Shown piece by piece: positions 22,495 to 64,000 of a DNA stretch of 64,000 nt. The notes beneath the pieces were generated by a model. That model did not search any database. It had not been told where the DNA came from and saw nothing but the letters and a program-made list of their open reading frames with translations. Every line of letters starts with the position of its first letter. Position 1 is the first letter of the stretch. The position numbers were made by a program, and so were the translations under genes. Source of the stretch: Schmidtea polychroa (Eukaryota); assembly GCA_044892525.1 (NCBI GenBank), contig JBJFYX010000106.1, forward strand, positions 62,001 to 126,000, given 5' to 3'.

Positions 22495-23759
22495 CTAAAA
22501 TGTATTAGATAAATTTAAACAAAGTTTCAAAATTTTCAATTCATGTTTATAATTTATTGATAAAATTAATTTAATTTAGTTCACGTTGCATTTTTCTGTG
22601 AAATAAGATGTTAACAATTATTGATCTGATTTCAATGTTTCTATAATAACAACTACGAATTCCCAAATATTACAATATCACTTCATAATGTTACACCTAA
22701 TTTCAATGAATAAAAGTCTCTATAATCTAAAAAAACCAATAAATCGAAACACAAAAACTTAAACTATATGTAAAAATTTATGGTTTTAATAAATAAAGTT
22801 TTTTTCTGTAGAAATTGAGAAAGTGGTAGAAAAATAATTTTAAGCTAGATTTGGAGAAATCAACTTTGAGTAATAGAGAAAATGACGAAAAAAAGTTCGT
22901 AAGATTTATTTATAAAATAATTATAAATATAATATTTCTCTTAAAACGCTGCCTTTTTTCGAAGTTGAAGAGCTGAAAAAGTAAGATTTATTCATGAAAT
23001 TACAAATAAATTAAATTATTTTAATTATTTCTTTTAAAATCCTAAAATTTCAAATATTCAAACATGTCCTTCTGCCTCTTGATTTCAAGAAAAAATCGTA
23101 AATTTTAATAACTTAATTTAAAAAAATATTTTCATAGAATTTCAGAACATCGAAAAATTCGATTAGTTAATGCTTTCGAAAATGGCGAAGATTACTATGA
23201 ATTTGTTAGATTACCGGGAATCACCGAAAAATGATTGGAACAATAATTCGAAGATTACAGAAACTTAAAAATCTATTTTATTCAAACACGATGTTTTTCA
23301 CCTAAATGTATTAAAAAATAGATGTATTTGGTGATCACTTTTTTAATAAATTATAATTCAAAATTGATCTAACTCAAATTATATCGAAATGATTCCTAAA
23401 TCAATTTCATGCATACATTTTTAAAACTGAAAACTAATTAAAAATAAATTATAATATAAATGTTGGCTAAAAGTAATATTTAAGAACTTGAATACTGATC
23501 TCATAATTATATGAAATCAAAATTCAAGTCTTAAAATTTACTTAAAACGTAAAAACTTACTTGAAAGCCATTTCTAAAATGGCTATAATAAATTAACTTA
23601 TAAATTAACTCCATCACAAATGGTGAGTAATTGATATACACAGCAACCTGTATTATAGAAACTTCTATTCATTGAAATTATTATTTAAATATATTTCAGA
23701 ATTTATTAGTTTTAACATTTTCTGTGACATTCAATTTCCTATTACGTTTTTCATCATTT

Positions 23760-44953: not shown

Positions 44954-47900
44954 TGTTGGCATATGAGGGAGAAGAAAACTTACACAACCATTATCATACC
45001 GACCGCATTGGTTAGCTCAGACACCTCCCATACATACGCCAAATGATCATTTACATATTCCCACGCATGAGCCCGTGGTGATGTTCCACGTTGGTAGTGC
45101 CCATACGGGTCGGAGCTGACTAACAGGTGAGCCCCTATCTTAGGACTACTGATAGCCCGCTCGCGGTTCAGGTTCACTGGTGCCTTAGAAGGACTTACCC
45201 TTATTCATGCTTCAGTCTTGGTTCGATCCTGGTCCAAGGGAACGACCGTTAGCCTACTCGCTTTCCTTCCACAACACTAAATTATTTATTCTCAAAACCA
45301 AACATATGAAAATCTTTATAAATCGGAACCAAATAGACAAAATATATTAATACCGAATTGAAAATAATAAAAACATCATTACACTTATTAATACAACATC
45401 ATACGGACGGTTAGGATGCACAATATTAACGAAGTCTATCAGTCAATTCACGACTCGAACTACATTCAGGGTCACTCGCGAACTGTTTTAGTTGAAGTTT
45501 TCTCCGTCGGCAATTAACTCGTCGATGTCTACCGGCAATCTACAATCCGAGATAAACTTGATGCCGTTAGCTGGAATGATACGGAAAACTTCTTTCGAGG
45601 GAATCGTATGAGTGGTGGATATCTCTGCTATTGTCGTCTGCGCTGCGAACAAAGAAGCCTCGAGCGCCTTCATTGCATTTCTTCGTTTCTTAGTCTTCTC
45701 GGCCCTAGTTGGGTGGTTGCGTTTGCGTGATGGCGGATTTCCTCCAACAGCAGTAGATACTGTGGGTGCCACTAGGATCGGGGCCAGAATTGGGTCAGAT
45801 GGACCGCCTTTCATAGGTAAGTATCCTGACAGCACTGGGGCTGGGATGGGCGGTAGATGTGAACCATGCCCTCGACAAGCTGTAGTGGGAGTTGTAGATG
45901 GCTGGTGATGGAGAGGAAAGACATTCGATCCATCCAATACGGGATATTCGCGTACCCGCTTTGCTATTTCTGCCTCCGTGTAGACCTTATGGAGGGCTTC
46001 TGATTGTGCTTTTATTGTGAGCCTTTGGCATCGGCTTTCTTCTAGTAGGCTGTCCCTACAATGTTCTAACCGGAGGATCTTAGCTTTTTCCTCCTTCATC
46101 TGTGGCGGGGAGAACCACGTTCCTTCATAAAGATCTATCCTCTTCTTGAGGGCCCCTATATATAAATGAAGTTGAGAGATGTCCGAGTTCTTGTCAGCGC
46201 AAGAGAAACACGGACGAAGCTCTTGGGCGTTATTGGATGGTGTTGTCATCTAGAAAATTAATCATGGTTCAAACCGAATTGCGATACTTATTAAGGTATC
46301 CGGTATAAGAATTCATTAGTTATAATTCTGTAATTTTTCACTAAGTGTCTTAATTCATAAATTTCATGCTTTTTAATATCTCAGCTAAGTTTTCTCTAGT
46401 AATCCGTTTTAACGGTGAAATATATCTAGTTCCAAATTCTACCGAGACACTAAACTCAAAGATTTCACTCATCATACCACGCCACAGCATACAATAAAAC
46501 AACTTGTTTTCACACAATTCAACACTCCTCATTCACTCATTTAGGAAACAACATTCCGATCGATTTATTGATTCAAGATGATGGAGAGAAGAAAACGGGG
46601 GAATCCTCGATTTTAACTTATTCGATGATAAATTTACCTTTATCCTCGGGTCGGATAACTCATACTCATTGCATTTTAGTCGGCTGCTATAGTCGAACAT
46701 ATTTACGCTCGTGATCAATAGAAAGGAATAGCATCCGATTGTTGGGGATTTCCGTTTATTAATTTGTACCTACTTCGTATTGCTAAATCGCATGAGAAAT
46801 TTATCTCTCCTTATGGTGCCTGGTTATTCCGAATTTACGGAAAGGACTTTAAATATATACTATTAGCTAATTATATTATAATTTAAATTTAAAAATTCTT
46901 TTTTAAAAATCGCGCTACTTCTGTCGCCTTAGTGACGCCTACTAGTAGAGGTGTGCATTTTTCTTATATTCATTAACTGAGTCGGTATGCATCGTTGGAG
47001 TAACTCCACCTCGTGCTTTCATGTGTGTCTATTTCTATGTGATGGTGGGGAAAATTCGACGTCGTGTTAAATCGCAGTGGAGACGATCCATGATGGAGTG
47101 TGTAGGTGTGTGCGGTTATATAATATATTGGAATTATCGCTGAGTGTTCTACGAGCATCACCATGGAATAGTGCGTAGTAATCCGATGAGCAACAACTAA
47201 GCTAGAATTTTTAATCTACCTCGATCATTACGCAGCCAGTACAAGACAAGGTCTACCCACGCGTCAATTAGATTATTCCTCGTGGAAATTTATTATCGGT
47301 ATTATCTGATTTCGTTGGTCGTTCAATTCGATCAGTTATCATCTGCCGGCAATTCATTTCTCAAGTCACTGATAACTCCTATCGTGGTTCCTCAATTCAG
47401 TCAGTGAGCAATTGATAAATCTGTCAGCGATTTCTGTCATTTTTCCGTGAGTAATCTGATAACCTCTCCTACTTATTTACATTCTTTTCAGGGAAGATGA
47501 TATTATCAGCGATTCGAAGCTAATCACTTAACTTAAAAATACATTCGTCGACGGGTGTCATCGCTAACATATCGACGGTTCAGATTCTACTAGTATACCG
47601 AGGAAAACCATACTCTACGGGACTTACTGGATTTACACTCCAAGCTTCGTCGACAACATTCTCGTTCACTATCCCGACTGACGGGTTGACCGTTATGAAG
47701 GAATTTCGCCGATCTATGTGGATTCTTAATACGTTGATGAAATTGTCAATCTCAACTCCGAACTGTCCTCGGTTCGCAACTTAAATCTCCTCCGCTATTA
47801 TCAGGTGTATCGATGTGACTTGTTGAAGCTATGGAACTTACTAAGAATGATGCGAGCTCGGTGAAGAAATTTCATCTTTCCGCCTGTTATCCTAACCTAC

Positions 47901-49194
47901 TGAGCCTCTACACCCCTCATAACACACCCAAGAAGGCAATCATCTCTGCCGCCATTCTCGGACGATCATGAGAGACCAGTCGACTCTTTCGCATTCAGCA
48001 ATTTAAAAGCAAATTTCAGATATAAATAATAAAAATGGAACAAATAATAATCAAGTAAATGAATCAAATTACCGGCGACCATATCGTCTGAGTTCCAAGT
48101 ATGATGCTTTCTCATTTTCCAACCCAATATTCCATTACAGTATTGGCATCGTATCCATTATTATCGCTTGCTCCTGATCCAATATCCTCGCAACATTTCT
48201 TGGCTACATATCATAAGACTCCTCGGGGCTACTTCCTCCATTTGGCATCATACTTGAAATCATCAGAAGGTACAGTCGTCGGCACCATGAAGAAAGGCAG
48301 GTTCTGTTTTTAAATAAATTTATTGAACAAATTTTCCTTGTTATTTACAAACTTTAATATCAATTATAAATAATTACTAAATTTCATCATATCTATCATA
48401 AAATTAAACCTAAAAAATATCCTACCATACCTTGAGATTAAATAACTGGGTTAAATCGGTTAAAGATTTCCTGAATAATACCGTTAATAGTTCGCTGTAT
48501 GTTTCTTCCTCAAATCAGATCAGTCTTCTTTGGATTAGTCCTCTGTAGTAGTTTGTGAATAAAATCTTGAAACCTGTAGAGTTGTTGGTTAAAGTGGTCG
48601 TGATAAGTTTTACAATTTTTACCTGTAGAGTTGTTGGTTAAAGTGGTACTCTACTGATTTTTAGCGTTTCTTATATACTATTTTCCGTCCAATCAGGACT
48701 TAGTTAGGTTGTAATTTTTAATATTTATTATTATTTTATGTTTTTATTATAATATATTAGCTTTTAATAACTTAACTTATTTCTTATTATTATTTTATTT
48801 ATTTTTCCTATTTTTCTTATTTTTCTCCTATTTTTTCTGCGGGTTCACTGCTACTTTATCATAATGCAATTTTTGTTTTAATTAAGCTTAAAGATATTTT
48901 TATTTTTTATTTATTGCTTTAATTTCTCGTTTATTTTCTCTTACCTTTTTGCTTATTCTATTTTTACTTTATTTATTGTGCTTTAACTCATTTCTCTTAT
49001 GTCCTATTTCTAATTCTTAAGGGCTTTATTTATTTATCATTTATTCTTATTTCTTTTTTATGGGTATTTTATTGTTTCCTTATTTATTATTGAGGTTTGA
49101 TGGGGATTTATTTTTATTATATTTCGTTTATATTTTTCGCGGCTCGTTTCCCGATTTAACCCAGTTTTTCTCTACTTCAAAACTTAGCCCAACA
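44954..49194 (-). repeat. Candidate 3' LTR, about 4.2 kb (TGTTGG...CCAACA)
   Basis: TGTTGGC at 44954 and GCCCAACA ending at 49194 give a 6-bp terminal inverted repeat. No clear PPT; the second LTR is outside the window. Confidence 0.35.
45488..46249 (-). CDS. Accessory ORF (253 aa): coiled coil, Pro-rich linker, basic NLS-like segment
   Basis: Uninterrupted ORF; ttttctag immediately before the ATG; RKRNHPTRAEKTKKRR; no recognisable domain. Confidence 0.6.
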   Translation of the reverse strand: MTTPSNNAQELRPCFSCADKNSDISQLHLYIGALKKRIDLYEGTWFSPPQMKEEKAKILRLEHCRDSLLEESRCQRLTIKAQSEALHKVYTEAEIAKRVREYPVLDGSNVFPLHHQPSTTPTTACRGHGSHLPPIPAPVLSGYLPMKGGPSDPILAPILVAPTVSTAVGGNPPSRKRNHPTRAEKTKKRRNAMKALEASLFAAQTTIAEISTTHTIPSKEVFRIIPANGIKFISDCRLPVDIDELIADGENFN

Positions 49195-49425: not shown

Positions 49426-50061
49426 TCACATGATCTTAAGGTTTGGAATGTTATTACTGTCTTGGTTGGTTGAATTCTGGGTCGGATGGCTGGTCGAAGT
49501 TGTTATCGTGGGGAGCTGTATTGTAACAGGTATTTGATCAGGAGATAGATTTTGTTGCATTTGGTCGGGTGGGTTTGGTTGTTGAAAGTGTACTGCTCGT
49601 TTATGCTTATTGTTTGGTCGTGGGTTCTTTCTTTCGGGTTTCTCGGATAGTGACTGGTTTCTTCTCCATGTCCGATAAATATCATACGCTTTCCAGATGA
49701 CTAGTGCGCAGATGATGATGGTTTCACTGATGGTAACATAGAGTAAGACTTGACTTTCTTTTGCTCCCTTCTTCATGATGATTTCCTTCAGGGATTGTTG
49801 GGTGGTTTGTTCTTGTAAGAGAATTTCGAGTTGTTCGATTTTTTGGGTTTGTAGATGGAGTTGCATTTGAAGTTTTTGCCAGACGGCTTTGTTCCAGCAT
49901 TGTTTCGGGATGTTGTTGGAGAGCTTTCTTTCGTTTTTCAGTTTGGTTAACGGGTTTTGCTGTTTCTCGGGATTCTCCCAGAGTGTTGGGATTGGCTGCC
50001 ACATGGGTGTTCCGTTTATCGCTATCATCATTATTGTCACCAGGGTTGCTCCGAACCACAT
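49426..50061 (-). CDS. Accessory type I membrane protein (211 aa)
   Basis: Signal-like MWFGATLVTIMMIAING, heptad Q/L ectodomain, TM VLLYVTISETIIICALVIW, basic stop-transfer segment, P/Q/T-rich tail. Confidence 0.75.
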   Translation of the reverse strand: MWFGATLVTIMMIAINGTPMWQPIPTLWENPEKQQNPLTKLKNERKLSNNIPKQCWNKAVWQKLQMQLHLQTQKIEQLEILLQEQTTQQSLKEIIMKKGAKESQVLLYVTISETIIICALVIWKAYDIYRTWRRNQSLSEKPERKNPRPNNKHKRAVHFQQPNPPDQMQQNLSPDQIPVTIQLPTITTSTSHPTQNSTNQDSNNIPNLKIM

Positions 50062-50116
50062 ACTACTATACGAAAATTTTTATTTACAATTATTTACATT
50101 GATCATTCATCTTTAA

Positions 50117-50818
50117 TTATTGCCGGGTTTTCTTTTTACGGGTTTTCTCGGATGTTCTCATCACTCTCGTTTCTGCTTTTATTACTCGTTTTCTCAATTC
50201 GGGTAGTACTTTTAATTGTTTGTCTCTTTCGTCTAACTGTTGCTTTAGGGTTATTATTTTTTCCTTTAGTGCTTTTATTTCTTGTGTTGCTCTTTCGAGG
50301 TTTTTATGGTTCATTATCTGTAGAAAATCATTTTCCCTTTCCCCGTCTTCTTCGTTGTCTATTTCTTGGTATTTGTTGTTCATTCTTTTCATTATTTCAC
50401 ATTCCTTTTGTTTCTGGTGTAGTTGGAGTTGTAACTCTTTCAGGCTTTCTTGGTGTTTCCGTGCCTCGGTTTTCCAATAATCACTAATCACTTCGTCGGC
50501 CTTTCTACTGGCCCTTTCCTGCCATAATTCTTCCGCGATCTTTTCCCAATTTCTCCCTCGCTTCCTTTGCTCGTGAAGCCATTCGTTTTCTTCCTCTACT
50601 TCTTTCTTTACTTCTTCTAACAGGGTGTATTCTCTTTTCAATACTTTAATCATTTTTCGATTATCTCTCCACCTTTCTACTAATCTTTCGTTTTCCTGTC
50701 TCTCCTCTTGTAATTCTTCCTTGATAGTTTTCTTCCTCTCCACTTCCTCAACTTCAATTTCTCCCTCTTCTAACTCGATTATAGATGTTATGATGGGTTG
50801 TCCGTTTTCAGTGTTCAT
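50117..50818 (-). CDS. Accessory coiled-coil protein (233 aa)
   Basis: Intact E/K/R-rich helical ORF. Confidence 0.75.
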   Translation of the reverse strand: MNTENGQPIITSIIELEEGEIEVEEVERKKTIKEELQEERQENERLVERWRDNRKMIKVLKREYTLLEEVKKEVEEENEWLHEQRKRGRNWEKIAEELWQERASRKADEVISDYWKTEARKHQESLKELQLQLHQKQKECEIMKRMNNKYQEIDNEEDGERENDFLQIMNHKNLERATQEIKALKEKIITLKQQLDERDKQLKVLPELRKRVIKAETRVMRTSEKTRKKKTRQ

Positions 50819-50991
50819 TTTCTATAATATATACATAATTAATAATTGCGCTACAGTGCGGCTTATACTTATACATTTATATGTTATTTTATAATCAGGG
50901 TTACAGTCCCTTTCATACTTTTACTGTACCATTAATTTTTTTGTTGGGATACAGGTCCCGATTTTTATATTTTTTATCTTTCCTTTCGTCT

Positions 50992-52029
50992 TTATACAAA
51001 GGTTTCTTCCTGGCCTACATATCCTTCATCGCTTTCTACTGACGTTTGTAATTGGAGTGCGATGGGATCAAATGGGATGTAGTACCGGGGAATCTGCGCT
51101 CTAAGTTCTTGGACTTCGTCTCTTAGCGCTCTTGACACGTTGAGTTCCTCGTCCAACAGGTAGGTTAAATACCTAGTTTCGTCATCCCGTACTTCTATCT
51201 GTTTTTCTAACTCTTCCGCCTTTTCGCCGTTCTCCCATTTTTTGATCTCCTTTTCGAGGTTCTTGATATTTTCATCATACATCTTCCTCTCGTTTTCTAA
51301 TTTCTTATTCTTACCGGCTAGCACTATGTTTCGTTGTTCTAGTGCCCCTTTGTAGCCGTTATTATCTCTCTCGAGGTCTGTCACCTTATTTACGAGTTCG
51401 ACGATTCTACCTGACTGTTGCAGGATCATCTCTTCCATGGCGGTATTCTCCTGTTCCTTTATAGACAGTTTCATGGCTAGATGCCTTTCAAATTCCATGG
51501 CCTTGGTCTGCCAGGTTTGACTTCGTGTTGCTATTTTCCTGAGCCTTCTTAGCTCTTCTCTCTGATCAAGGTTTTCCTCCCATTTCCCCTGCTCGGTTTC
51601 GTATTCTAATTTCTGAGGTAATTCCCTTATCTCCTTTTTAATTTCCCGATGTTGTCTTTTCCACTTTCTGGCTTCTGCCAAGAGTTGACGAGATTTCCTT
51701 TCCTCCTTTTGTTTTTCTATCTCTCGTTTTTTATTCTCGTCTGTCAGTCTTTTTCTCGATTCTTGTACTAGTTGCTTGAGGTAGTGACCGTGAGCTTCTT
51801 GTCGCGTATTTTCTAATGCTGCCCACTTGGCGGCTCTTTTACATGCCTCCGCCTCTGCTCGTAAGTTTTGCACCAACCACTGAAATTGGTGGTTTTCCCA
51901 TTCTCTTGCTTCTTCGAGGTAATTTCGTGTCTTATTTGATAATTGTGCCATTACTTTGGCCCATCTTTTTCGGTGTACTCCATTGATTTTTATTTCGTTG
52001 TTTGGGGCTTCTGTTTGTTCTTGTGTCAT
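50992..52029 (-). CDS. Accessory coiled-coil protein (345 aa)
   Basis: Intact E/K/R-rich helical ORF. Confidence 0.78.
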   Translation of the reverse strand: MTQEQTEAPNNEIKINGVHRKRWAKVMAQLSNKTRNYLEEAREWENHQFQWLVQNLRAEAEACKRAAKWAALENTRQEAHGHYLKQLVQESRKRLTDENKKREIEKQKEERKSRQLLAEARKWKRQHREIKKEIRELPQKLEYETEQGKWEENLDQREELRRLRKIATRSQTWQTKAMEFERHLAMKLSIKEQENTAMEEMILQQSGRIVELVNKVTDLERDNNGYKGALEQRNIVLAGKNKKLENERKMYDENIKNLEKEIKKWENGEKAEELEKQIEVRDDETRYLTYLLDEELNVSRALRDEVQELRAQIPRYYIPFDPIALQLQTSVESDEGYVGQEETFV

Positions 52030-52248
52030 CTTATCTGAATAACGAGATTATCAACTCAACGTCTCACATTTATATTTGTTCTATTATTTATTTATTGTTA
52101 CGAATATAGGTGGGTTGGGATTTTTTCTAGGTTTTCCGCTTAAATTTACCTTTAGTAGATTTGGGGTTTTTCTACACTATTATATAATATTTTACTGGAT
52201 ATATACGCCGATATTTACAATTTATTATATACAAAATTATTCATCTCA

Positions 52249-53637
52249 CTATTCAGTCCTACTCTTCCCATCTCGCCTCACCGCTATTTTTATGTATATA
52301 GTGTCGTTTCTCGTCATATCCTCCACTTTCCGCTGTAGGATAAAATTCGGTGCTCCGGTTGCTGGTCCTTCTTCTTCCAATGGCCTTTGATAACATACAA
52401 GGTTTCCTGCTGTATGGAAACTCTGCTCATGTGTACTTAGATAGTTCATCATTGCGAGGTCTATTTTTGCTTTGAACGGCCATTCTATTAACTCATCGTA
52501 TGGCCCTTTGCATATCAAGAAGAATATTGAGAAATGTGTTCCGTGCGCGCTTCCGTCCCCGTTGGGATATGCTTTCATTTTCATCTTATATCCGTTTTTC
52601 CATGAGTAGAAGGCTGGACTTAGTAATGTCGTGTCCTTTCCATTTCTCGCTCTCTGCATTTTCTCCTTTACTTCCGTTATTTTCCATATGTATGGAGCCG
52701 TTGGTATCAATTCATTGAGGTTCATTTCGCTTACTTTTTGATGTAGTTCTTTCACCATTTTGTTGCTAGTTTCTACTAGATCTGTTTGTATCTTTGTACT
52801 TAGTCTTGCCTCTTCGAATGCTTCTTTCTCTTGCAATAATTCTTTTACCAACGTTTTCAGCGAGGTTATTTCCTTTTCTAGGTTTTCGGTTTTCTTTTCG
52901 TTTTCTTGTAGTACCGTTGACCATATTTCTGCGTGTGTTGATACGTTCTCTGCTAGATGTTGGGGTAGTTCTCCTCGGTGTAATTGTTTCTGACATCCCC
53001 ATTTTCCTAACACACACATTATCTTTTTCCTTTCGCATTCTTTCAGATGTTGAGCGAGTTTTATTACTCCGGGTTTATCGCATTTGTTGGGACATTCTCC
53101 TCTGAATTCTGCGCACACTTTTTCCTCTTGTACGTTATGATGTTGACTCGTTAGTTTTCTCCAGGTGTCGGTTTCTCCGCAATATTCGCATCTTTCTAGC
53201 CTTTCCTTGCACCGACTTTGATGTTCTGTTTCTTCACTGGCTTTAATCTCTTCTTGGCAACGTTCGCAGTGACTGACTTTATGCTCACACTTCTCCATGT
53301 GTTGCCTCACCTCCCATATCACTCCTCGCCAATTGCATGGGGTGTTTTTACATCCTAGATTTGTATTCAACATATCTTTTACAGCTGCTTTATCTTCGTT
53401 TGTATCTCCCAAATTTGTTATCATTGTTTCTTTACATACTGGGCACCATTGTGGTCCCTTCTTTATTATTTCTTCTACACATTCTTTACACATTCTACAT
53501 CCGCATCTGGTTTGGTGAGGTTCTCTTAATAATCCCTTGCATATTCCACACTTCACATGGTCATGTATTCGAATTGTGGTGGATTTTCTGACTTGTTCGA
53601 CAATCTCCTTGAATTCTTCTCTTTGTCGCTTATCCAT
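52249..53637 (-). CDS. Full-length intronless TRAF-family protein (RING, TRAF zinc fingers, coiled coil, MATH)
   Basis: CGICKGLLREPHQTRCGCRMCKECV...CPVC RING; zinc fingers such as CPNKC...HLKEC; MATH motifs YIWKI, SPAFY, GYKMKMKAYPNGDG, GTHFSIFF, LIEWPF, DTIYIKI. Confidence 0.95.
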   Translation of the reverse strand: MDKRQREEFKEIVEQVRKSTTIRIHDHVKCGICKGLLREPHQTRCGCRMCKECVEEIIKKGPQWCPVCKETMITNLGDTNEDKAAVKDMLNTNLGCKNTPCNWRGVIWEVRQHMEKCEHKVSHCERCQEEIKASEETEHQSRCKERLERCEYCGETDTWRKLTSQHHNVQEEKVCAEFRGECPNKCDKPGVIKLAQHLKECERKKIMCVLGKWGCQKQLHRGELPQHLAENVSTHAEIWSTVLQENEKKTENLEKEITSLKTLVKELLQEKEAFEEARLSTKIQTDLVETSNKMVKELHQKVSEMNLNELIPTAPYIWKITEVKEKMQRARNGKDTTLLSPAFYSWKNGYKMKMKAYPNGDGSAHGTHFSIFFLICKGPYDELIEWPFKAKIDLAMMNYLSTHEQSFHTAGNLVCYQRPLEEEGPATGAPNFILQRKVEDMTRNDTIYIKIAVRRDGKSRTE

Positions 53638-53722
53638 TTCTATAATTATATATACATATATTCGTTACTGGTACAATTTCGTATTTTTATTTACAGTTAT
53701 TTACATTTGTTTTAGGTTATAT

Positions 53723-54082
53723 TTATTGACTGGAAGAGTCGGCCTCTTGTCCGCCCTCTTCCCTACTGGTTAACCATTCTGACCAGTCTTCTATCTCCTC
53801 TCTTTCCATTTCTTCAGCGATTCTCATTAATTCTTCTTCCTGTCCCTGGCTGTATCGCGATATTCGCACTATTTCCTGCTGCATTTGTTCTATCTTTATT
53901 CGCTGATCTTCGATTATTCTCACATAACTGAAACCTTTATTTAGACTTTCGACTAAGCTTCTTTGTGCAGCGAGTCCTTGTTCCTGTAAATTCGAAATCA
54001 CTTGGGTTAACATTGCACATTGCTGTTTCCACATCTCTTCGGTTGTCGTACTGTGGTTTACTTCATCGTTTATTCGCTCCAT
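53723..54082 (-). CDS. Accessory small coiled-coil protein (119 aa) with acidic Trp-containing tail
   Basis: Intact ORF with heptad pattern; EIEDWSEWL tail. Confidence 0.65.
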   Translation of the reverse strand: MERINDEVNHSTTTEEMWKQQCAMLTQVISNLQEQGLAAQRSLVESLNKGFSYVRIIEDQRIKIEQMQQEIVRISRYSQGQEEELMRIAEEMEREEIEDWSEWLTSREEGGQEADSSSQ

Positions 54083-54249
54083 TCTTAATTATATACACTT
54101 TTCAACCCTTATCTCATTTTAGTTTTATATTAATTGTCCCCATCATTATATAATATTGATACCGCGCTTATATAGAGATATAGAATACTGTTATATAAAT
54201 ACATATAATGTACTTACTTTTTACAATCTATATACAGTCATAATCCTTT

Positions 54250-55680
54250 CTATATTTGTGAGTTTGGAGGACGCTGAGCGTTCCAGGCCTCCACCCACTG
54301 TTCCTGTTTGATATTACTTGGTCTCTTTACCTGATGTTGAAAGTTTCTGATTCTGGCCATCTCCAGTTCTCCGCGATGCCGTCTATCTTTGATTATTTTT
54401 ATGGTTCCCCCCATTATGATTAAAAATGCCCCTGCTATTATTATGCCGCTGATCCACATCATCTGTTTCACGCTTATGATTTCCGCTTTTTCCTTGTTCG
54501 TTATTGTTGGTATTGCCTCTGTGCTTTTTAGATTATCATCTTTGTCATTTCCTTTTATCATTCCTCGTATTCTTGCTATTTCTTCGTTCATGCCTTCCTT
54601 TGCCATTTTTTGTATTTTCTCCATCTCTTCTTCTGACACGTAATTATCTTGATATTTCTCACTGGTTTTCTTGCGTTTTCCTTGCTCATCCTTTTCATCA
54701 TTGATTTTTCTTTTCTTCCCTCTTTTCCCAGGGTATCGTCGACATTCTCTCGCTGTATCGTTTCTCCAGATGCATACTGTGTATTCTTTTGGAGGTTGTT
54801 GCTGTGTTACATATTGTAGACAGTCTTCACCCGGTCCTAATCTTGAAATGCAGACTTTGTGTTCTTTTCTTGGCTGGAGTTGCGTTATCACTACCTCACC
54901 TCCTTTTTTCAGGTGTACCTCCTTCCCTTTGACTTTAGTTATTCTCTTCCCGTCTCGATTCCGGTATGCTTCTTGTATTCTTACTTCCGTTATCGGTTCT
55001 GTATCTTCATTTATTAATACTAGTCTCCGATATGCTCTCGACATACATCTTCCTAGTATGCACCTTTCTTTTAGATCCCATTCTTCTTTTAAATCCCATT
55101 GTTGCTCTCGTACTTGCTTCTTCTTTTCTTGCTTTAGTTCCTCCTCCTTGTTATCTTTGTTTTCCGTTTCCTTGGCTTCTTTTATCGTTCTCATTCCTCC
55201 GTGAGCTGTTATCATTTCTACCATTGTTAGTATGAGTATCATTACCATCATATTTGTCTCCATTTCCTTGTTGGTAAAAAGTAGGCATACCCTCTGTTTT
55301 CCATTATTCGTCTTTTCCTCTTCCTTTGTTCGGTTTCCCGGGTTATTTTCCTCTTTTCTCATACTCGCGTCGTTATTTTCTTGCTTATTCTCCTCTGATT
55401 TCTCTTTCCCGTTTTGACCTGTTTCGTCATTATCGTCGTCTTTATAGTCTTTATCTCCCCCGCTGTCGTTTGAAATGTCGTCCTCGACATTTATGTCGTT
55501 CAATAATCTGCGATATGCTGTTAACACTCTATTTCTTGCTAATTTCGCTTCGAATTCGAACTCCTTTCTGCCTGTTGCTGCATGTCTCTTTCTGTTCCAT
55601 TCTTTTACTAATTCTCTTAATTGTATTCGACGATTTTTCCGATTCGCTTTTGTTCGTTTTGATTTTGCGTGAATTTGAGG
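54250..55680 (-). CDS. C-terminal segment of the polyprotein: acidic linker, internal signal peptide, FN3-like ectodomain, TM, short tail
   Basis: Frame is open from about 55740 and joins the ankyrin frame by a 1-nt shift near 55672. MMVMILILTMVEMITA signal; VVITQLQPRKEHKVCIS FN3-like strands; MMWISGIIIAGAFLIIMGGTI TM. Confidence 0.72.
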   Translation of the reverse strand, partial: PQIHAKSKRTKANRKNRRIQLRELVKEWNRKRHAATGRKEFEFEAKLARNRVLTAYRRLLNDINVEDDISNDSGGDKDYKDDDNDETGQNGKEKSEENKQENNDASMRKEENNPGNRTKEEEKTNNGKQRVCLLFTNKEMETNMMVMILILTMVEMITAHGGMRTIKEAKETENKDNKEEELKQEKKKQVREQQWDLKEEWDLKERCILGRCMSRAYRRLVLINEDTEPITEVRIQEAYRNRDGKRITKVKGKEVHLKKGGEVVITQLQPRKEHKVCISRLGPGEDCLQYVTQQQPPKEYTVCIWRNDTARECRRYPGKRGKKRKINDEKDEQGKRKKTSEKYQDNYVSEEEMEKIQKMAKEGMNEEIARIRGMIKGNDKDDNLKSTEAIPTITNKEKAEIISVKQMMWISGIIIAGAFLIIMGGTIKIIKDRRHRGELEMARIRNFQHQVKRPSNIKQEQWVEAWNAQRPPNSQI

Positions 55681-58600
55681 TCTTCTCTGTTCAATACGAT
55701 CATTATGATTTTCGGAGTTCCTCCTTTTGTCAGCGTATTTTTAACCATGGCATTTTCCCCGTTTTCATAGAACTCATTTATGTTTATTGCATATGTATTA
55801 CTTTGTGGTATTTTCCAGGTTAACAATAACTTCATGGCTTCTAAGCTCTTCCGTATCGTGTTCCATTGGAATTGTGACGTGTTTTTGCAGATATTTTCTA
55901 CCTCAGTTCTTGTAGCATTTTTACAAATGAATCTAATCCTTTCCAGGTTTGGTTGTATTGTTGCCCAATCCATGGTAGAATTTCCCTCGTTTGATTTCTC
56001 GTCAAGTCTCTAACCTGATTGATGTAGTATGTGTAAGGTTTTCGGGTGTATATTTGTTATTGCTGCATACATCATTGCTGTTTCTCCTTGTTCATTTTTT
56101 GCATTAGATTCTTCTCCGAAGTCTCTAAGAATTCTTATGATGGTTATTGCTCTGTTTTCTTTTGCTGCTAATATTGCTTGTTGTAATGGTGTTCTTGAAT
56201 CTTTCGTCGGTAAGGTGAATGCTAGTGGTATGAATGTTTTCATTTTTCCTATGTCTAGATTTGTGGTCTGATCTCTTGCGTAGGTGTGTACTGTTTTTGT
56301 TATTTTTGCTAGTATCGCCTCATCGGATAGATCTTGCATTTCTTCAAAGAATACTTCTTTAGCCTTACGTACTACTATCTCTTGGTCGGAGTTTATTGTC
56401 TTTGGTTTACTTGTTGTTGCTATATCGGTTATTATTTGATCGGTTTGTTTCTCAGACTCTCTTGCTGTTATTTTCTTGATTTTTATCCTTTTCTTGTTCG
56501 AACTGTTAATGCGTTCTTCCGCTGTAAGCACTTGAATAATACTTAGGTAGTTTTCTCGGATGTTGTTCATAGTTTCCATCATATATAATACGTTCACAGT
56601 TTCCCAATATTTTACTTGTACTTTATCGGTAAATTGAGATATGGCTTTTTCGAAGTTTGTAATTCGTTTTCTGATTAGTTGTTCGTCTTTGTGATTTGAA
56701 AACTTTATGCCACGTTGTAGTAGTTGATTTGGAATTTCGAATAGGTGATGTCCTCTCATCGCTTCTCTCATCAAGGTGTTTTCTCCTTTGGTAAATGTTT
56801 CGTTTATATCTACCATATAATCGTTTTTGATCGGGTTCCTCCATGCAATTAGTAATCCAGTAATTGTTATTAATTTCTCTTTGATCGCCGTTAATAGCCC
56901 GTCATACATGTTTCCTATCTCCCTATTATCCTCGTACGATAATAGATCTACTAAGATTATGAAGGCTTCCGTACTTTTCCCTTCGATTGCATGATGTAGT
57001 GCATTTTTCCGGTTGTGATCTTGTGTGGTTATCTTTGACCCAGTTTCAAGTAATGCGATAATAATATCTTTAGCTTTATCCCGATTGGCTGCTATCATTA
57101 GTGGGGTGTAACCTTGGTTATTTTCTTGATCCGTTGAAACGTTACAATCGCGAAATGCTTCAATTGTCTCTAGTATTTGTTCATTATTACCAACCTTTAA
57201 AAGTTTGTGTAGTGGTGTATCTCCGTAATGGTCTGTGATCGTGAATAATATGGGCCATTGACTTTTAACTACCCTGAGCAATGGGTGTGTTCTTTCTCGG
57301 TTTGCATAGTTTTCTATCATGGTTAGCAGACCTCCCAATATCTCAAAATCCAATTTATCTTTAGCCCATCCGGGTATTTTAGCTTTTACTTCTTTTATGA
57401 TTTTCTCGGCTTCTGATGGTTGTAGCCCCGATCGATTACCCGTTGGTTTGTTTATCTGCTGTAACATATTGATTCTATACGTTTGTGATCTGGTTGTTAA
57501 TGTTCGCCCTTCTGGCTGATTGGTGGCGGTTTTCGGAATTGGCTTACATCGTGCAACATTTACGTATATTGGTCTTGTAAAAGGGTTGTTCACTAATCGT
57601 ACTCTTACATTAGTTTCTCCGACAAATAAAATCTCATACGGCCCTTTACCGTTTCGTTGTAATTTTTTGGTGGTTCCTGGAATTAATTCTGGTGTTTCGA
57701 TCATCACCCAATCGCCTGTTTGAAACGTATGCTGTTTGACGTTTTTCTTTCTATCATGTAAATCTTTGTAACTTTCTTGATAAAATTTTATATTCAATCC
57801 TGCAGTTTCCCAGATTTCCTGCATTCTTTCCTTGAACTTGGTTACATAATCGTCTATTTCCATGTATTGTGATATTGGTGGCTGATATTCTAAGTCCATT
57901 GGCATATTACATTCTCTACCATACATCAATTTGAATGGACTCATCTTTGTGGACGCGTGAATCGACATTCTGTAAGCCATTAAACATAATTTTATATACT
58001 CGTCCCAGTCGCGTTGATGACGATCGACATAATTTGATAACATTTGAATCAAGGTTCCGTTGAATCTTTCTGTCATACCATTTGTTTGTGGGTGGTACGG
58101 TGATGTTCTTAATTTTGCAATCTTGAAGTAATTGGTTACTTCGCTCATTATTTCACTCATGAAATTTGTTCTCTGATCAGTTAATATCTGTTTTGGTGTT
58201 CCATATCGACAGCATATCTCCTCTACCAGTATTTTCGCGATTGTTTTTGCTTTCTGGTCTGCCATAGCGAATGCTTCAGGGAATTTTGTCAAATAATCTG
58301 TGATTACCAATATATATATATTTCCTCTATCGGATTCTGGTAGTGGACCGACTACGTCCATAGATATCATTGTCATTGGTTCTGCCGGTACTGGCATTGG
58401 CTTTAACGGTGCTTTCCATTTCGTTCCCGTGTTTTTTCTGGTCGCGCAAGTTATACAGTTCTTTACCCATTCCGTTACATCCTCAATCAATGTAGGCCAA
58501 AAATACTTTTGTTTCATTCGGGCTAACGTCTTCTTCGATGACATATGTCCTCCGAGTCTTCCGTCATGATATTGCGTTAGCAAATCTTTACGTCTATTTT

Positions 58601-58790
58601 CTGGAATGCACATCAGTCTCTTTTCCCCATCCATTATCAATAACCAATCTTTCTCGATAATATATCGATGTCGATGTTTATCCATGTGTTCTTTCAGTTT
58701 TTGATCTTTCTCGTATACCTCTGCTTTTCCAGTTTTTACATATTCGATAATTTGTTTCAACTCGGCATCATCTTGCTGGTCTTTTCGTAA
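55617..58790 (-). pseudogene. Integrase fused to ankyrin repeats; in frame with pol across TAA 58791-58793, with an internal TAG at 56010-56012
   Basis: HHCC (YHDGRLGGH...CITC), SMDVVGP, LTDQ, GMTERFN, GPY. Ankyrin motifs GDTPLH, GYTPLMIAA, KNALHHA, RTPLQQA, GETAMMYAA, G*RLDEKSNEGNSTMDWA. Confidence 0.92.
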
Positions 58791-61700
58791 TTAGCAAAAA
58801 TCTAAATCTTCCGCTACCATTAGACATATCCGTTGCATTTCATGATCTACTAAATCTGGAAAGATAAACCTTGACATACAATCCGCATTGGCATTCGCTC
58901 TTCCTGCTTTGAATTTTATGAACGGTGAATATTCTTGCAACTGCATTGCCCATCGCATCAATCTACTTGAAGCTTCTTTGTGCTGTCCGAGCCATACTAA
59001 TGGTTGGTGATCTGTTGTGATACATATTTCGTGTCCCCATAACAAATATCGAAAATGTTTTATCGCTTGTATTATAGCTAACGCTTCTCTTTCTGTTACT
59101 GAATAGTTTTTCTCATGCTTTTTAAACGTTCTGCTGTAATAGCCGATTACTCTCTCCTTTCCTTCTTCATCGAGTTGTCCTAATATTGCTCCGGCTGCAT
59201 ATCCACTTGCATCGGTTGCTAACAAGAACGGTTTCTTGAAATCAGGATGTACTAGTATTGGGGCTTCAATTAATTTATCTCGCAATGTTTCAAAGGCTTT
59301 TTGCTGTTCTGCTCCCCAGATAAATGAAATGTCTTTTTTCACTAATTCCTGGATTGGTTTCGCAATACTTGCATAATTTTTAATGAATTTCCGATAATAT
59401 CCGCATAATCCGAGGAATTCTTGAACTTGGGTGACAGTTTTCGGTGCTGGACAGGTTTTTATTTTTTCTATATTTCTTGGATCTGGTTCTTTGCCTTTTG
59501 CTGACACTATGTGTCCTAAGAACGTAACTTTTTCTTTTGCCCAATCACATTTGGATGGTTTAAGCTTCAATTTCCATTGTCGTAATCGGATGAACACGTT
59601 TCTAATGTCTTCCAAATGTTGTTCGAAAGTTGCTGAATATATTAATAAATCATCAATATATACCATACATTGCTTGATCCCGTGTGTGACGAAATTCATG
59701 CATCTCTGAAATGATGCTGGGGCATTGGTCAGTCCAAATGGCATTTTCCTGAATTGATATAGATCTCGGCCCAATGTGAATGCTGTTTTCTCTTTGTCTT
59801 CCTCCTTGACTTTGATCTGCCAATATCCGCTCTTTAGATCTAAAGACGTAAAATATGCGGCCCCCTGTAGCATAAGTAACATCTCATTGATGTCTGGTAA
59901 TGGGTATGTGTCTCTTTTTGTTACTGCATTTAATTTCCGATAATCGATACAGAATCTCTGAGTACCGTCTTTTTTCTTTACCATGACTACTGGAAATTGC
60001 CATGGCGAACAACTTGGTTCGATCACTTGTGCATCTAGCATTTTTTGTACTTCTGCTTCGGCTATCTCTTTTTGCTTCTCTGCTAGTTTGTATGGTCGTA
60101 ACGCAATTGGAGTTTCGTCTATTAATGGTATTGCGTGTAATGTGACATCGCATGCTCCCAAATCTAAATCCGAAATTGCGAATATATCTTTATATTCTAT
60201 TAGTAATTGTTGAAGTCTTTCCTTTTCTCTTTCCGTTAGCAAGGTGCTATCAATTATCCATAATTCGTCAGCTTTCGTTGTTTCGTTGGTGATTTTTGGT
60301 AATTCAATGTCTATCATGGGTGTCAATCTACCCAATCTTTCATTTTCATATATGATCTTGTCTTCCTCCTCGAAATTTGTGATGTTAATTGGTATTTCCC
60401 CTTCTTCATTTATTGTTATTATTTCTCTTGCTAATGGTAATTCTCGTCGTTTTTCGAATGATTTGCTTGGCTCGAAAATGGCTTCTCCTTCCATTCCTGC
60501 ATCCACTTTTATTTGACATATCATCTGTGATTTTGCTGGCACAATTATTTTCTCCGGACATCTAATTATTGCGTTCATCTTGCATATTCTACCCATTTTA
60601 TCTTTTAGACACATTGTTGTTAAATCGATTACTACTTCCTTGAACAATTCCGGCATTAAATCCGTTCCGATTATACATGGTTCGCTCAGTTTGGGTATCA
60701 CCGCTAGATACGTTTCAATTTCATTATCTTGATATCGTAACGTAGTCCACCATCTTCCTACTACGTCTACGGTTTCTTTACTGCATGCAATAATATGGAT
60801 AGTTGTTTGTTCGATATCTTTCCAACATTTAGTGGGTATTTGGTTTATTGCTATTGCTGATACGTTTGCTCCGGTATCTATCATTGCGCTTGTCTCTTTC
60901 CCATTGATTTGGATCATGACTGTTACTGCCGCGCCTCCTGGTGAACTCATTACTGCTATTGTTCTGACGTCATCAGCTTGGTCTACGCTTTTCGTTCTTC
61001 GGATTGGCATATAGTTCATTCCTGGTTGACTTGGTAACTGTGGATACATATTTTGTGTCATGGTCAAAGCTGTTTGTTGTCCAACGATATCTGGTGGTAT
61101 ATAACTTCCGTTGGCTATCCAGGTATTTGTTTTTTCTTTCTCCCAATATGGCGCTGTTTCTATTGGCTTTTCATTCGGGTTTCTACTTGGGTATGGATAT
61201 TTGTCATTCCCATTGTCGTCATCATCACTATCGCTGCTGTTTGATCGATTTCTAAATCTGTCTAAGAATTTTGGTTTGTTCTTCTTTAATTGCGCTCTCG
61301 TTGCTTCATCATACATCGTTTTCCGAAATCGTCTGCCAACTTCCTCGTCAGTCCCTTTTATTTTTGTCAGTATTTTGATTAATCGTTTTATTCTGTGTAT
61401 GTCTTTGGAATGACCGTGCAACACCATTGTTTTTGCCAAAAATGGTAGAAAACCTACTATCAATTTCCAATTCACTTTCTTTTCTCGCTTGTATATATCG
61501 AAGCATGCCAACATTTGGGTCAATATTACCCTGACGATCTGAATAATTAAGATGATTCCCAATATTCCTGCCATCATTTGACCGAACACTAGAAATCTTC
61601 CCCACATTGCTTTCATCATGTTTGACGTGGCTTGTTGAAAATGATCCGGTGATAATAATAGTTCATAGTTGGGACTTGATTGGAAATTCGTTCCCCCAGT

Positions 61701-62789
61701 TATGGTAACCATATTTGATAAAATGGATTCCCGTCTTGCTGGGAATAATACGTTTAATCGTGCCGTTTCTAAATCCTCTGGTGAGTACATACCGGCCTTT
61801 GACACATCAATTGGTTTGAAATCCTGTTCTGTTGCAAGCTCTATTAATCCAAACTTTTTAGGTTCTTGCACTTCAACTTTTAACGGTAACATTATCCATT
61901 TCCCATCGGGTTTTTCATATAATGGCCCGTATGCATTTGAACAGTTAAAGGTGTTCGGATAAAATCCAATTGGGTTCATAATTCTGGTGACGGGTTGAAC
62001 GAATCTGTTCCGCCCTTTGTAACTAATTTCTAATTCGTTTGCACATTTCCCTGGTGGAATTGTGGGTTTTCTTGGCAGTCGTGCAAATGTCTTGGTACAT
62101 GCATATGTATACATTACCTCTCCCACCATTCTACCAAAATGTCCATCCGGTAACGGGAGTGATGTCATTGTGTTATCTGGGTGTGTTATTGCGATGGCTA
62201 ATTTTGTTTTTAGTATTTCTTTATTCAATGAACAGTCATTTTGTATAAGATCGTAATATACTTTTTGCATTGTCGTTTGTCCTCGATGGAATAGGAAGTC
62301 CATCTTGTTATTGGCATACAAGTACAATTTTACGTCTTCCGTTGCTACCTTTTCCACTGCTCTGTCTATTACTTGCCTTGACATGTAGATACCTGCGTAG
62401 TTCGTCCGGTATACTATACTGTCACATTTGGTAGTCTCTTTTTCTCTGATGAATTTCATACCGATATCTGGATCATCTGTAATTAATGCCGTTGGTGTTT
62501 TTTGTGTTGTGAGTCTCTTTTCTTTGGGGGATGGTGGGACTGGTTTCCCATTTCGCATCCTTACGTTTCCATTCTCTTCGTCGTCATCTTCGTTTTCATA
62601 AATTTCTCCTTTTACTTCATTGAACAAAGCACTTTTTAACAACTGGAGTCGGCATTTTTGGGTGTTGGCTTCATATATTATAGTCGAAATTCCCGTTCTA
62701 CACACGTTTTCCGTAGCTCTGCATGCTGGGTTGGTTTTCATTTGATAATTATTTGCGTCGAATTGCGCTTCGTATTCCTTCAAATCCAC
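58791..62789 (-). CDS. Polyprotein segment: glycoprotein C-half and TM, aspartic protease, RT, RNase H
   Basis: TM WGRFLVFGQMMAGILGIILIIQIV (about 61500-61605); MIDTGANVSAI (about 60875); FCIDYRKLN, MPFGLTNAP, YIDD (about 59655); LATDAS, EREAL, TDHQPL, NADCMS. Confidence 0.95.
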   Translation of the reverse strand: MDLKEYEAQFDANNYQMKTNPACRATENVCRTGISTIIYEANTQKCRLQLLKSALFNEVKGEIYENEDDDEENGNVRMRNGKPVPPSPKEKRLTTQKTPTALITDDPDIGMKFIREKETTKCDSIVYRTNYAGIYMSRQVIDRAVEKVATEDVKLYLYANNKMDFLFHRGQTTMQKVYYDLIQNDCSLNKEILKTKLAIAITHPDNTMTSLPLPDGHFGRMVGEVMYTYACTKTFARLPRKPTIPPGKCANELEISYKGRNRFVQPVTRIMNPIGFYPNTFNCSNAYGPLYEKPDGKWIMLPLKVEVQEPKKFGLIELATEQDFKPIDVSKAGMYSPEDLETARLNVLFPARRESILSNMVTITGGTNFQSSPNYELLLSPDHFQQATSNMMKAMWGRFLVFGQMMAGILGIILIIQIVRVILTQMLACFDIYKREKKVNWKLIVGFLPFLAKTMVLHGHSKDIHRIKRLIKILTKIKGTDEEVGRRFRKTMYDEATRAQLKKNKPKFLDRFRNRSNSSDSDDDDNGNDKYPYPSRNPNEKPIETAPYWEKEKTNTWIANGSYIPPDIVGQQTALTMTQNMYPQLPSQPGMNYMPIRRTKSVDQADDVRTIAVMSSPGGAAVTVMIQINGKETSAMIDTGANVSAIAINQIPTKCWKDIEQTTIHIIACSKETVDVVGRWWTTLRYQDNEIETYLAVIPKLSEPCIIGTDLMPELFKEVVIDLTTMCLKDKMGRICKMNAIIRCPEKIIVPAKSQMICQIKVDAGMEGEAIFEPSKSFEKRRELPLAREIITINEEGEIPINITNFEEEDKIIYENERLGRLTPMIDIELPKITNETTKADELWIIDSTLLTEREKERLQQLLIEYKDIFAISDLDLGACDVTLHAIPLIDETPIALRPYKLAEKQKEIAEAEVQKMLDAQVIEPSCSPWQFPVVMVKKKDGTQRFCIDYRKLNAVTKRDTYPLPDINEMLLMLQGAAYFTSLDLKSGYWQIKVKEEDKEKTAFTLGRDLYQFRKMPFGLTNAPASFQRCMNFVTHGIKQCMVYIDDLLIYSATFEQHLEDIRNVFIRLRQWKLKLKPSKCDWAKEKVTFLGHIVSAKGKEPDPRNIEKIKTCPAPKTVTQVQEFLGLCGYYRKFIKNYASIAKPIQELVKKDISFIWGAEQQKAFETLRDKLIEAPILVHPDFKKPFLLATDASGYAAGAILGQLDEEGKERVIGYYSRTFKKHEKNYSVTEREALAIIQAIKHFRYLLWGHEICITTDHQPLVWLGQHKEASSRLMRWAMQLQEYSPFIKFKAGRANANADCMSRFIFPDLVDHEMQRICLMVAEDLDFC

Positions 62790-64000
62790 TGGATATTACC
62801 TCCCCTCTGATCGTATATGTGCCTCCGTTACAGGATCCATCGGTCGATTTTACCCGTCCGGCTACATAGATGCTTTCGGTCTTAATCATCCCGCTTTGTC
62901 CGTGTATTGTTACTCCATCCCGGATTCTCATTGCTCCGGTTCTAAAAAGCTCTTTGCAGTCTTCCCGTTGTATAGGTACTATTTCTTTATCTAATCCGGG
63001 TAGTATGAGAGTTGAATAAGAATATTGTCCACAATAATATGCCAACACTTTCTTTGATACTACGCATTCTCTAGCTTGTGTTCGAATAAAATCTGATTCT
63101 TGATATACGTGATAGGAGACTTTCTTCTTTACTATATCTAATTTATTCGGAGATGCTTGTCTGCATTCCTCTATATCTCTCAGGGAGTATTTTTCTCTTA
63201 ATACCGAATTGTCACAGTCGTAGATTGTAAATCCAGCTGCTCCGCTGGTACAGAGCATCCATATCATCATGGTCATCATTAGTGAATTAATCGACGCTTT
63301 TCTGCTGGCTGGGTCCTTTAATGGCAATTCCCATTCTAGCTCGTTTAATAATTTTTTCAACCGAATTTGCATTGATCTCTCTTGCTCGTTTTTCCGTGGT
63401 GCTTGTATGAGTCTTTTCCATCCACCGGCGCGGATAATATGTGGTTCGATTGTAGTTTCAATGATTGTAACTGTCATTTCTACATGATTTGCGAATTGTT
63501 TGTTAGGTATTTTTCTTGCTGCTAATCCCATCAAATTGTACATTAGATACGTTAACACTACTAAATGATGTTCGTCGTCGTTTGCGTTTAAAGTTAATTG
63601 TTCAATTACTCTTCTTGTCTCTTCCCAATCGGTTTTAGTGGTTTTTGTCTTCTCTTTGATTAATTTCGGAATTATTCCGGATATTGTATTCCATAGCTGT
63701 CTGGCATCTACGCTTGCTACTTTTCGTTGCCATAACCGTCTCAATTGCGGGTTCGTTATTATTAACATATCCTTTACTAGCTCTCGTATCCATTTTTCAC
63801 CTCTCTCGATTGTTGGTTGGGCTTCTTTTAGGTCCCATACTATTTTATCCAGTTTCTCTAATCTGACTTGTCCTTGTTCTTGTTTTAGTTGTTCTCTAGT
63901 TTTAAATTCTGGTTTTTCTCCTTGTTTCTTGGGTCTTCCTTTTGCCCGTTTCTCCATCATTGTTCCAGCTTCTCTTGTCTTTTCGTAATTCGGGTTTCTC
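62749..64000 (-). CDS. Polyprotein segment: Bcl-2-like domain, internal signal peptide, N-half of a gB/chuvirus-like glycoprotein. Open past the window edge; shifts into the 58791-62789 frame near 62790
   Basis: Frame is open to 63999 (RNPNYEKTREAGT-MMEK). HIIRAGGWKRL is BH2-like. LMMTMMIWMLCTSGAAG/FTIYDCD signal and cleavage site; Cys pattern YYCG...DGSCNGGTY. Confidence 0.85.
   Translation of the reverse strand, partial: RNPNYEKTREAGTMMEKRAKGRPKKQGEKPEFKTREQLKQEQGQVRLEKLDKIVWDLKEAQPTIERGEKWIRELVKDMLIITNPQLRRLWQRKVASVDARQLWNTISGIIPKLIKEKTKTTKTDWEETRRVIEQLTLNANDDEHHLVVLTYLMYNLMGLAARKIPNKQFANHVEMTVTIIETTIEPHIIRAGGWKRLIQAPRKNEQERSMQIRLKKLLNELEWELPLKDPASRKASINSLMMTMMIWMLCTSGAAGFTIYDCDNSVLREKYSLRDIEECRQASPNKLDIVKKKVSYHVYQESDFIRTQARECVVSKKVLAYYCGQYSYSTLILPGLDKEIVPIQREDCKELFRTGAMRIRDGVTIHGQSGMIKTESIYVAGRVKSTDGSCNGGTYTIRGEVISSGFEGIRSAIRRK

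Follow-up and report, generated by a model that had tools for sequence, protein, structure and literature searches.

The last 19 kb of the window (the whole stretch of 64,000 nucleotides of Schmidtea polychroa DNA analysed here) were found to be part of one minus-strand LTR retroelement, whose polyprotein carries a Bcl-2-like domain in frame 40 residues before the predicted signal sequence of the envelope protein (Env). The reading we prefer, at a probability of about 0.5, is that this diverged domain would be held at least briefly at the endoplasmic reticulum (ER) and likely aids survival of the host cell. The domain itself is a real and already known cargo of a known element family: Burro elements are described as carrying a BCL2-like motif, followed in frame by env and then protease (Arkhipova and Yushenova, 2019, PMC6431247, citing Grohme 2018), and with domain and place already in print the finding of the domain is not new. 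Added here are its grouping as one set across seven lineages, purifying selection, the loss of the BH1 tryptophan and glycine throughout, and a signal-like helix that always lies 20-48 residues further on.

The element and the place of the domain

The element spans 30,652 bp in total and is a Burro-type Gypsy LTR element, an assignment made from the published description of these elements. It displays the size (>30 kb), long LTRs and target-site duplication (4 bp) of that type, with 4 mismatches in 4,241 between the two LTRs. Its features, together with the parts of the domain, are as follows.

44954..49194, minus strand: 3' LTR, 4,241 bp
52249..53664, minus strand: TRAF-like accessory ORF with RING, zinc fingers and MATH (Pfam)
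56013..60920, minus strand: protease, reverse transcriptase, RNase H, integrase and ankyrin repeats (Pfam)
61488..63231, minus strand: Env, a class III (chuvirus/gB-like) fusion glycoprotein (PF24664, E 9.7e-22 and 2e-46)
61521-61577, minus strand: Env transmembrane helix (hydropathy)
63232..63297, minus strand: predicted internal signal sequence of Env, on which the PF24664 match starts
63298..63417, minus strand: linker of 40 residues that contains a predicted amphipathic helix and has the basic n-region at its end
63397..63816, minus strand: Bcl-2-like helical domain of about 140 aa in the Gag-Env-Pol polyprotein frame (profiles, shuffles, AlphaFold2 models, fold searches)
63406..63465, minus strand: BH2 region, GGW kept, tryptophan of PWI replaced by histidine in the window family
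63532..63615, minus strand: helix 4 and helix 5 (BH1), NWGR columns DDEH at 63568-63579
63649..63708, minus strand: helix 2-3, BH3-like position, register uncertain
63757..63798, minus strand: helix 1, BH4-like position, a low-confidence part of the model
71365-75605 (window-equivalent, outside the window): 5' LTR

The order of the single giant ORF of Burro-type elements, Gag-(cargo)-BCL2-Env-PR-RT-RH-IN-ankyrin, was recovered; the window copy itself is broken, with stops upstream of the Bcl-2-like domain, a frame change that splits Env across two frames near 62750-62795, and a stop at 58791-58793 in the pol region, ahead of integrase. The adjoining contig stretch contained Gag, three CCHC knuckles and a RING ORF, together with repeats that look ubiquitin-like by eye. 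A protein search of the genome with a 205-aa query returned 1,022 candidates, and all 150 scored copies were 93-100% identical; a stop fell inside the query region in 6 of these 150, and 67 had open frames of at least 4,700 aa (hand count). One pattern scan for the BIR motif and Pfam searches for dUTPase gave no match in the stretches scanned (the published calls used HHpred), and a simple, crude scan detected no splice acceptor within 2.5 kb upstream in any of three copies. Contigs from 3 of 12 listed sequencing runs, aligned to 60500-64000, carried nothing usable on splicing or expression.

Several further observations concern the element and its surroundings. LTR divergence was only 4/4,241 despite several frame breaks in the polyprotein, which suggests either recent movement of an already defective copy by trans-acting proteins or homogenisation of the LTRs. 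A copy identical over 801 bases sits on C1 and may be a duplicate haplotype. An open frame of 253 codons (45488-46249) lies inside the LTR and hence at both element ends. Downstream of pol (49426-55740), coiled-coil-like ORFs accompany the TRAF-like gene, two of the accessory ORFs (54250-55740 and 49426-50079) having predicted membrane helices by eye, and no Pfam family besides TRAF scored above cut-off in this region. Outside the element, three short frames (11410-11979, 22100-22504, 44264-44746) resembled fragments of ubiquitin-specific proteases by eye.

An earlier note on this DNA had quoted peptides from a Bcl-2-like domain at 63400..63960, and these were present in the minus-strand frame 62749-63999 (RRVIEQL at 63595-63615, helix 5 at 63532-63570, the BH2/GGW helix at 63406-63465). 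Its spacing held, with 64 residues from V to W compared to 63 in the Bcl-xL chain, as did its observation that NWGR is lost and GGW kept. The upper 140 bases of its range are upstream spacer, since the folded domain spans about 63397-63816. The domain does precede the Env signal, but "directly upstream" is approximate, with a 40-residue linker between the two and the signal itself (63232-63297) outside the claimed range. Helix 1 aligned to helix 1 of Bcl-xL only in whole-domain structural alignments and lies outside the sequence-profile match, and no BH3 motif was recognisable in helix 2-3. One alignment (A4) seemed to show helix 3 deleted, a reading that was dropped when the register shifted in another (A7); compared to Bcl-xL, the region is by eye only about 4-9 residues shorter.

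Evidence for Bcl-2 ancestry

Taken alone, the window domain did not reach the cut-off of the Pfam Bcl-2 family PF00452 (E 0.13 and 0.034) and phmmer against the PDB returned no Bcl-2 match, only one unrelated match at E 0.97. Among 552 peptides of the window, a profile of other element lineages (B to E) gave the top rank to the window frame (E 7.5e-5); none of 2000 shuffles reached its score (22.4 compared to a maximum of 12.3 bits). The window frame also came first (E 0.046) with a profile built from eight cellular-type Bcl-2 sequences of this genome, again with 0/2000 shuffles reaching the score (12.7 vs 10.9). Element-only profiles searched against the PDB matched Bcl-xL without gaps from helix 4 to BH2 (E 6.3e-6, and E 2.5e-5 for a second profile, whose matches were to Bcl-xL only). 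Alignment of element against cellular-type profiles by hhalign gave a probability of 95.6% (E 1.2e-8), and the direct comparison of the window family (A) with the other lineages was weak (13.8%, E 0.002). Of 15 aligned members, 14 matched PF00452 with an E no higher than 1, the best at 1.4e-6. Homology to the Bcl-2 family over BH1-BH2 was detected by the profiles, the window sequence by itself staying below the Pfam cut-off.

The domain occupies the same place in six sister lineages of the window family, giving seven lineages with identities of only 16-24%. A genome search with PF00452 recovered cellular-type Bcl-2 genes and element family B, in which the domain sits in the same place and has a clearer BH1 than in the window family; the match of family B is partly selected since a Bcl-2 model was used to find this family, which does not apply to C to G. 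A protein database search gave no match among 552 longer candidates, one sequence (P0003) was the sole match in 1.84 billion representatives and displayed the domain-linker-signal-Env layout of the window, and later protein searches added only P0004. Lineages C and D were found via P0003, and a search with Env only yielded two further lineages, F and G; all six loci chosen only by Env carried the domain before the signal. P0003 and P0004 are proteins encoded on short metagenome contigs and have the same Bcl-2-like domain, one of them with the start of Env, at about 27% identity to the window, and to judge by their sequence they come from a related element in another source.

In a tree of 18 rows, 10 element domains were separated from 8 cellular-type rows by a branch with 96/95 support, and in a tree of 22 rows the element-side branch had 94/96 support; both contain long branches and leave out P0004, which is without BH2, and near-copies were thinned in the 18-row tree. 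As to the donor gene, no cellular row adjoined the element group with support in either tree. The labels "host" and "Maverick-associated" for the Bcl-2 rows were assigned from their neighbours or the absence of these. Taken together, we consider it very probable that the window domain is a diverged Bcl-2-like domain of Bcl-2 ancestry.

Other Bcl-2 genes of this genome were seen along the way. Multi-copy cellular-type Bcl-2 genes (L034 at G000:C1:50165000-50171500, L035 and L036) have a TBP-like gene and an A32-like packaging ATPase as neighbours, one family having an intron and another being a single ORF. This suggests that Maverick/Polinton (adintovirus-like) elements, a second class of mobile element, also carry Bcl-2. 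The window holds Maverick-like fragments at 15527-18140; by eye, their TBP-like, packaging-ATPase-like and integrase-like frames resemble the ones next to L034. A separate cluster of at least seven near-identical Bcl-2 genes (L014-L020, G000:C4:89.95-90.83 Mb) has NWGR intact, with no long hydrophobic tail following in frame.

Structure prediction favoured the Bcl-2 fold, a helical bundle with the hydrophobic helix 5 at its centre, without proving it. An AlphaFold2 model from element rows only had a pLDDT of 48; with cellular Bcl-2 rows added it rose to 59, and these added rows make the second model lean to the Bcl-2 fold. Among the Foldseek matches listed, Bcl-2-family entries made up 37 of 39 for the first model and 39 of 39 for the second, with best E-values of 0.13 and 0.079, none significant, and a best TM of 0.62. 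A wide search with VIA, which is free of Foldseek, placed generic bundles on top for the element-only model, with 8 of the 50 matches listed belonging to the Bcl-2 family, compared to 22 of 50 for the second model. With the second model Bcl-xL aligned over the whole domain (Z 8.6, rmsd 3.7, 120 aligned), ranking below a designed protein (Z 9.4, 92 aligned), and VIA re-alignment of Foldseek's own picks reached Z 10.3 (rmsd 4.2, 104 aligned). Against viral models Foldseek had no match with an E of 0.001 or lower, and at rank 2 stood an adintovirus Bcl2 with E 1.2. The check by structure prediction and Foldseek proposed in the earlier note thus put Bcl-2 entries in the top ranks, but from low-confidence models and with no significant E-value, and the fold searches, at that low confidence, favour Bcl-2 over the capsid or other non-Bcl-2 fold that the note had set against it. 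A capsid reading of the domain was rejected, as the polyprotein has its capsid (Retrotrans_gag) domain about 1,400 residues further upstream.

The predicted Env signal helix as a possible anchor

The hydrophobic helix that follows the domain reads as Env's own cleavable signal, since the fusion-protein profile starts on it and signal features are kept in all seven lineages. In 7/7 lineages the n-region has 3-4 basic residues and leads into a hydrophobic core, and the residue at -1, three positions before a conserved YDC, is small; at -3 it is small or neutral in 6/7. The signal-peptidase site, read by eye from the (-3,-1) rule rather than with a signal predictor, is predicted between 63232 and 63231. 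By established polyprotein biology, an internal signal inserts with its N-terminus cytosolic and stays on the upstream protein, which it anchors in the ER. If the helix is such a signal, cleavage is accordingly expected to yield a signal-anchored product, as for the core protein of HCV, which is ER-anchored by the E1 signal after signal-peptidase cleavage and later has this anchor removed by signal-peptide peptidase (PMC5402940). Further along, the Env transmembrane helix (61521-61577) would return the chain to the cytosol for Pol.

Whether such an anchor would last is a different matter. The distance from GGW to the uncharged run was 40 aa in the window family, 36-48 in B to E, 32 in G and 20 in F, and the hydrophobic core of the window family was the weakest of the seven (KD 1.49 compared to 2.06-2.87), that of F having a KD of 2.43. 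In the window family the helix is internal to the polyprotein rather than a protein end and no basic residue follows its core; the tail of a cellular-type Bcl-2 from the same genome (L034) has 25 aa after GGW and a basic C-terminal flank. By these sequence features family F looks most like a true tail anchor and the window family least. The 40 residues that separate the helix from GGW, and a hydrophobic core weaker than in the other six lineages, make a stable anchor doubtful in the window family. The tail-anchored viral Bcl-2 suggested in the earlier note therefore survives as a first, signal-anchored cleavage product, but the lasting anchor is in doubt, as the product would be inserted at the ER and may be cut again. 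Transient ER anchoring of the domain is probable, and a lasting tail anchor rather less likely than not.

Function, rival explanations and known systems

The BH1 tryptophan and glycine were absent in all seven lineages, the NWGR columns reading DDEH, NRDK, NGD[RK], SENR, DK[SN]R, DRDV and DKEV, with the glycine replaced by D, E, N or S. A basic residue at the arginine position was kept in 4/7 lineages and lost in 3/7, including the window family. GGW was kept in 7/7, and the first tryptophan of BH2 (W-I-x3-G-G-W) is H in the window family and W in the other six. In cellular Bcl-2 the single change G145A abolishes Bax binding and death repression (PMC5841437). The poxviral proteins M11L and F1L have no detectable identity to Bcl-2 and yet inhibit apoptosis, and poxviral N1, A46, A52, B14 and K7 use the Bcl-2 fold for NF-kB signalling independently of the groove (PMC7022251). 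With neither BH1 residue kept in any lineage, canonical BH3 binding is doubtful, and from the motif columns we judge NWGR-type binding unlikely. Prediction of a complex between the domain and a Bak-like BH3 peptide gave no verdict, with a score of 0.01 compared to a mark of 0.34, the alignment unused and the controls not folded. This exon peptide comes from the same genome (L026:1245-1343), its identity as Bak is our own reading, and it gave no match against the PDB.

The domain is under purifying selection. Between subfamilies dN/dS over the domain was 0.017-0.053 in 6/7 pairs, the seventh being saturated. Amino-acid identity was 93% over the domain, 91% over the flanking 120 residues and 95% over the linker, other windows of the polyprotein ranging from 61 to 99%. 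Conservation of the domain does not exceed that of the parts around it, so selection points to no Bcl-2 function in particular; it indicates that the protein is of value to the element but does not show that the domain acts as a Bcl-2.

In the scheme we propose, a host Bcl-2 gene would have been captured once, long ago. SRP would drive insertion of the internal Env signal, and signal-peptidase cleavage would leave the domain at the ER membrane facing the cytosol, for a short time at least, the N-terminal side of the product being released by the element's own protease. The domain would then promote survival of the producing host cell. Because the BH1 tryptophan and glycine are gone, we propose that it may do so via a remodelled groove or another surface. 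A pro-survival role is the single reading that we favour, at about even odds. A stronger form of this scheme holds that one ancient capture is shared and has been kept by at least seven lineages, that the Env signal helix is the tail anchor, and that a stably ER-anchored viral Bcl-2 blocks death without NWGR as a second survival factor beside the Burro1 IAP; taken whole, we find it unlikely.

Chance resemblance of an unrelated helical domain with a GGW motif would fit the single-sequence scores below cut-off, the absence of a significant fold match, the weak direct alignment of family A with the other lineages, and ESM Atlas features that fell only in unnamed clusters (0.76) and were uninformative. 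It sits badly with sister lineages whose domain in this position has a clearer BH1/BH2, some of which turned up in searches that used no Bcl-2 query, with PDB profile matches to Bcl-xL only, with shuffles that never reached the observed scores, and with the published HMM annotation of a BCL2-like motif (PMC6431247), and is very improbable.

Two other explanations accept the ancestry and differ in function. The domain may be a signalling antagonist with a Bcl-2 fold rather than a BH3 sponge, binding immune or ubiquitin-signalling proteins outside the groove in the manner of vaccinia N1, A46, A52, B14 and K7 and working beside the TRAF-like, ankyrin, RING and ubiquitin-like cargo. The loss of the BH1 tryptophan and glycine in all seven lineages, the other cargo of the element (TRAF-like ORF, ankyrin repeats, RING ORF), and the groove-independent NF-kB modulation by poxviral folds (PMC7022251) all speak for this, but the BH2 GGW and helix 5 pattern are nearer to cellular Bcl-xL than those poxviral proteins would be, such activity is reported only in Poxviridae (PMC7022251), and the 3050-aa family B keeps the domain with no ankyrin or MATH match in two stretches scanned, so that we regard it as improbable. 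The captured Bcl-2 may instead now serve particle assembly, as a matrix-like spacer that ends a signal-anchored Gag precursor and couples Gag to Env at the ER before the anchor is cut off. Its fixed place between Gag and Env in 7/7 lineages, a degree of conservation that it shares with the linker and other structural parts nearby, and the precedent of a capsid anchored by an envelope signal in HCV core (PMC5402940) are consistent with such a role. A purely structural role would leave the retention of GGW unexplained across lineages only 16-24% identical, and GAG-ENV-POL elements also occur in nematodes and bryozoans, for which the text and 7 supplements of PMC13524379 hold no Bcl term, though that study may not have looked. 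We rate assembly, too, as an outside prospect compared to the pro-survival reading.

If the domain is an ER-anchored death blocker, the element would encode a retrotransposon viral Bcl-2 with a dual-use helix, which would imply BH3 control without NWGR and be relevant to the mutualism reported for Burro1 and the stem cells of planarians. Burro/GYPSM1 are giant Gypsy-like planarian LTR retroelements (Jurka 2007; Grohme et al. 2018, per PMC6431247), Burro-type elements have been suggested to meddle with host apoptosis (Arkhipova and Yushenova, 2019, PMC6431247), an IAP-like cargo of Burro1 acts against apoptosis and so protects stem cells (Lee et al. 2026, as cited in PMC13465017), and BURRO1 transcripts rise on PIWI knockdown (PMC8532177). 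The Burro section of PMC6431247 contains nothing on a signal-peptide anchor, BH1 loss or selection, and our literature search found no functional study of the domain and none on the anchor, of which Grohme 2018 and Lee 2026 may cover more.

Among the closest known systems, published Burro shares with the window element a length of >30 kb with LTRs, one ORF of similar size (about 4,730-4,810 aa in many copies here compared to 4,873), a three-CCHC Gag, the BCL2-like motif, the placement of env, ankyrin repeats, MATH/TRAF and RING (PMC6431247). The two differ in the position of MATH/TRAF (a separate ORF downstream of pol here, within ORF1 or upstream in published Burro; PMC6431247), and in the BIR pattern and Pfam dUTPase, neither found here in the stretches scanned. 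The GAG-ENV-POL errantiviruses of Platyhelminthes with an HSV/gB-type Env have the same gene order and a class III fusion protein (PMC13524379). Six Schmidtea elements appear in the supplement of that paper, where "Bcl" and "Burro" occur 0 times in the main text and "Bcl" 0 times in 7 supplements; the likeness is one of layout. Compared to Bcl-xL/Bcl-2 and the viral mimics M11L, F1L, KsBcl-2 and A179L, the domain shares GGW, a predicted helical bundle, a C-terminal hydrophobic helix and, with Bcl-xL, the ungapped match from helix 4 to BH2. It differs from the pro-survival family in having lost NWGR, in lacking a clear BH3 motif, in being part of a polyprotein, and in a tail helix that doubles as the predicted Env signal, 20-48 residues after GGW by lineage. 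With HCV core it shares the predicted topology, a cytosolic upstream protein ending in an envelope signal and ER-anchored after cleavage, but no homology, the anchored protein there being a capsid whose anchor is cut by signal-peptide peptidase (PMC5402940).
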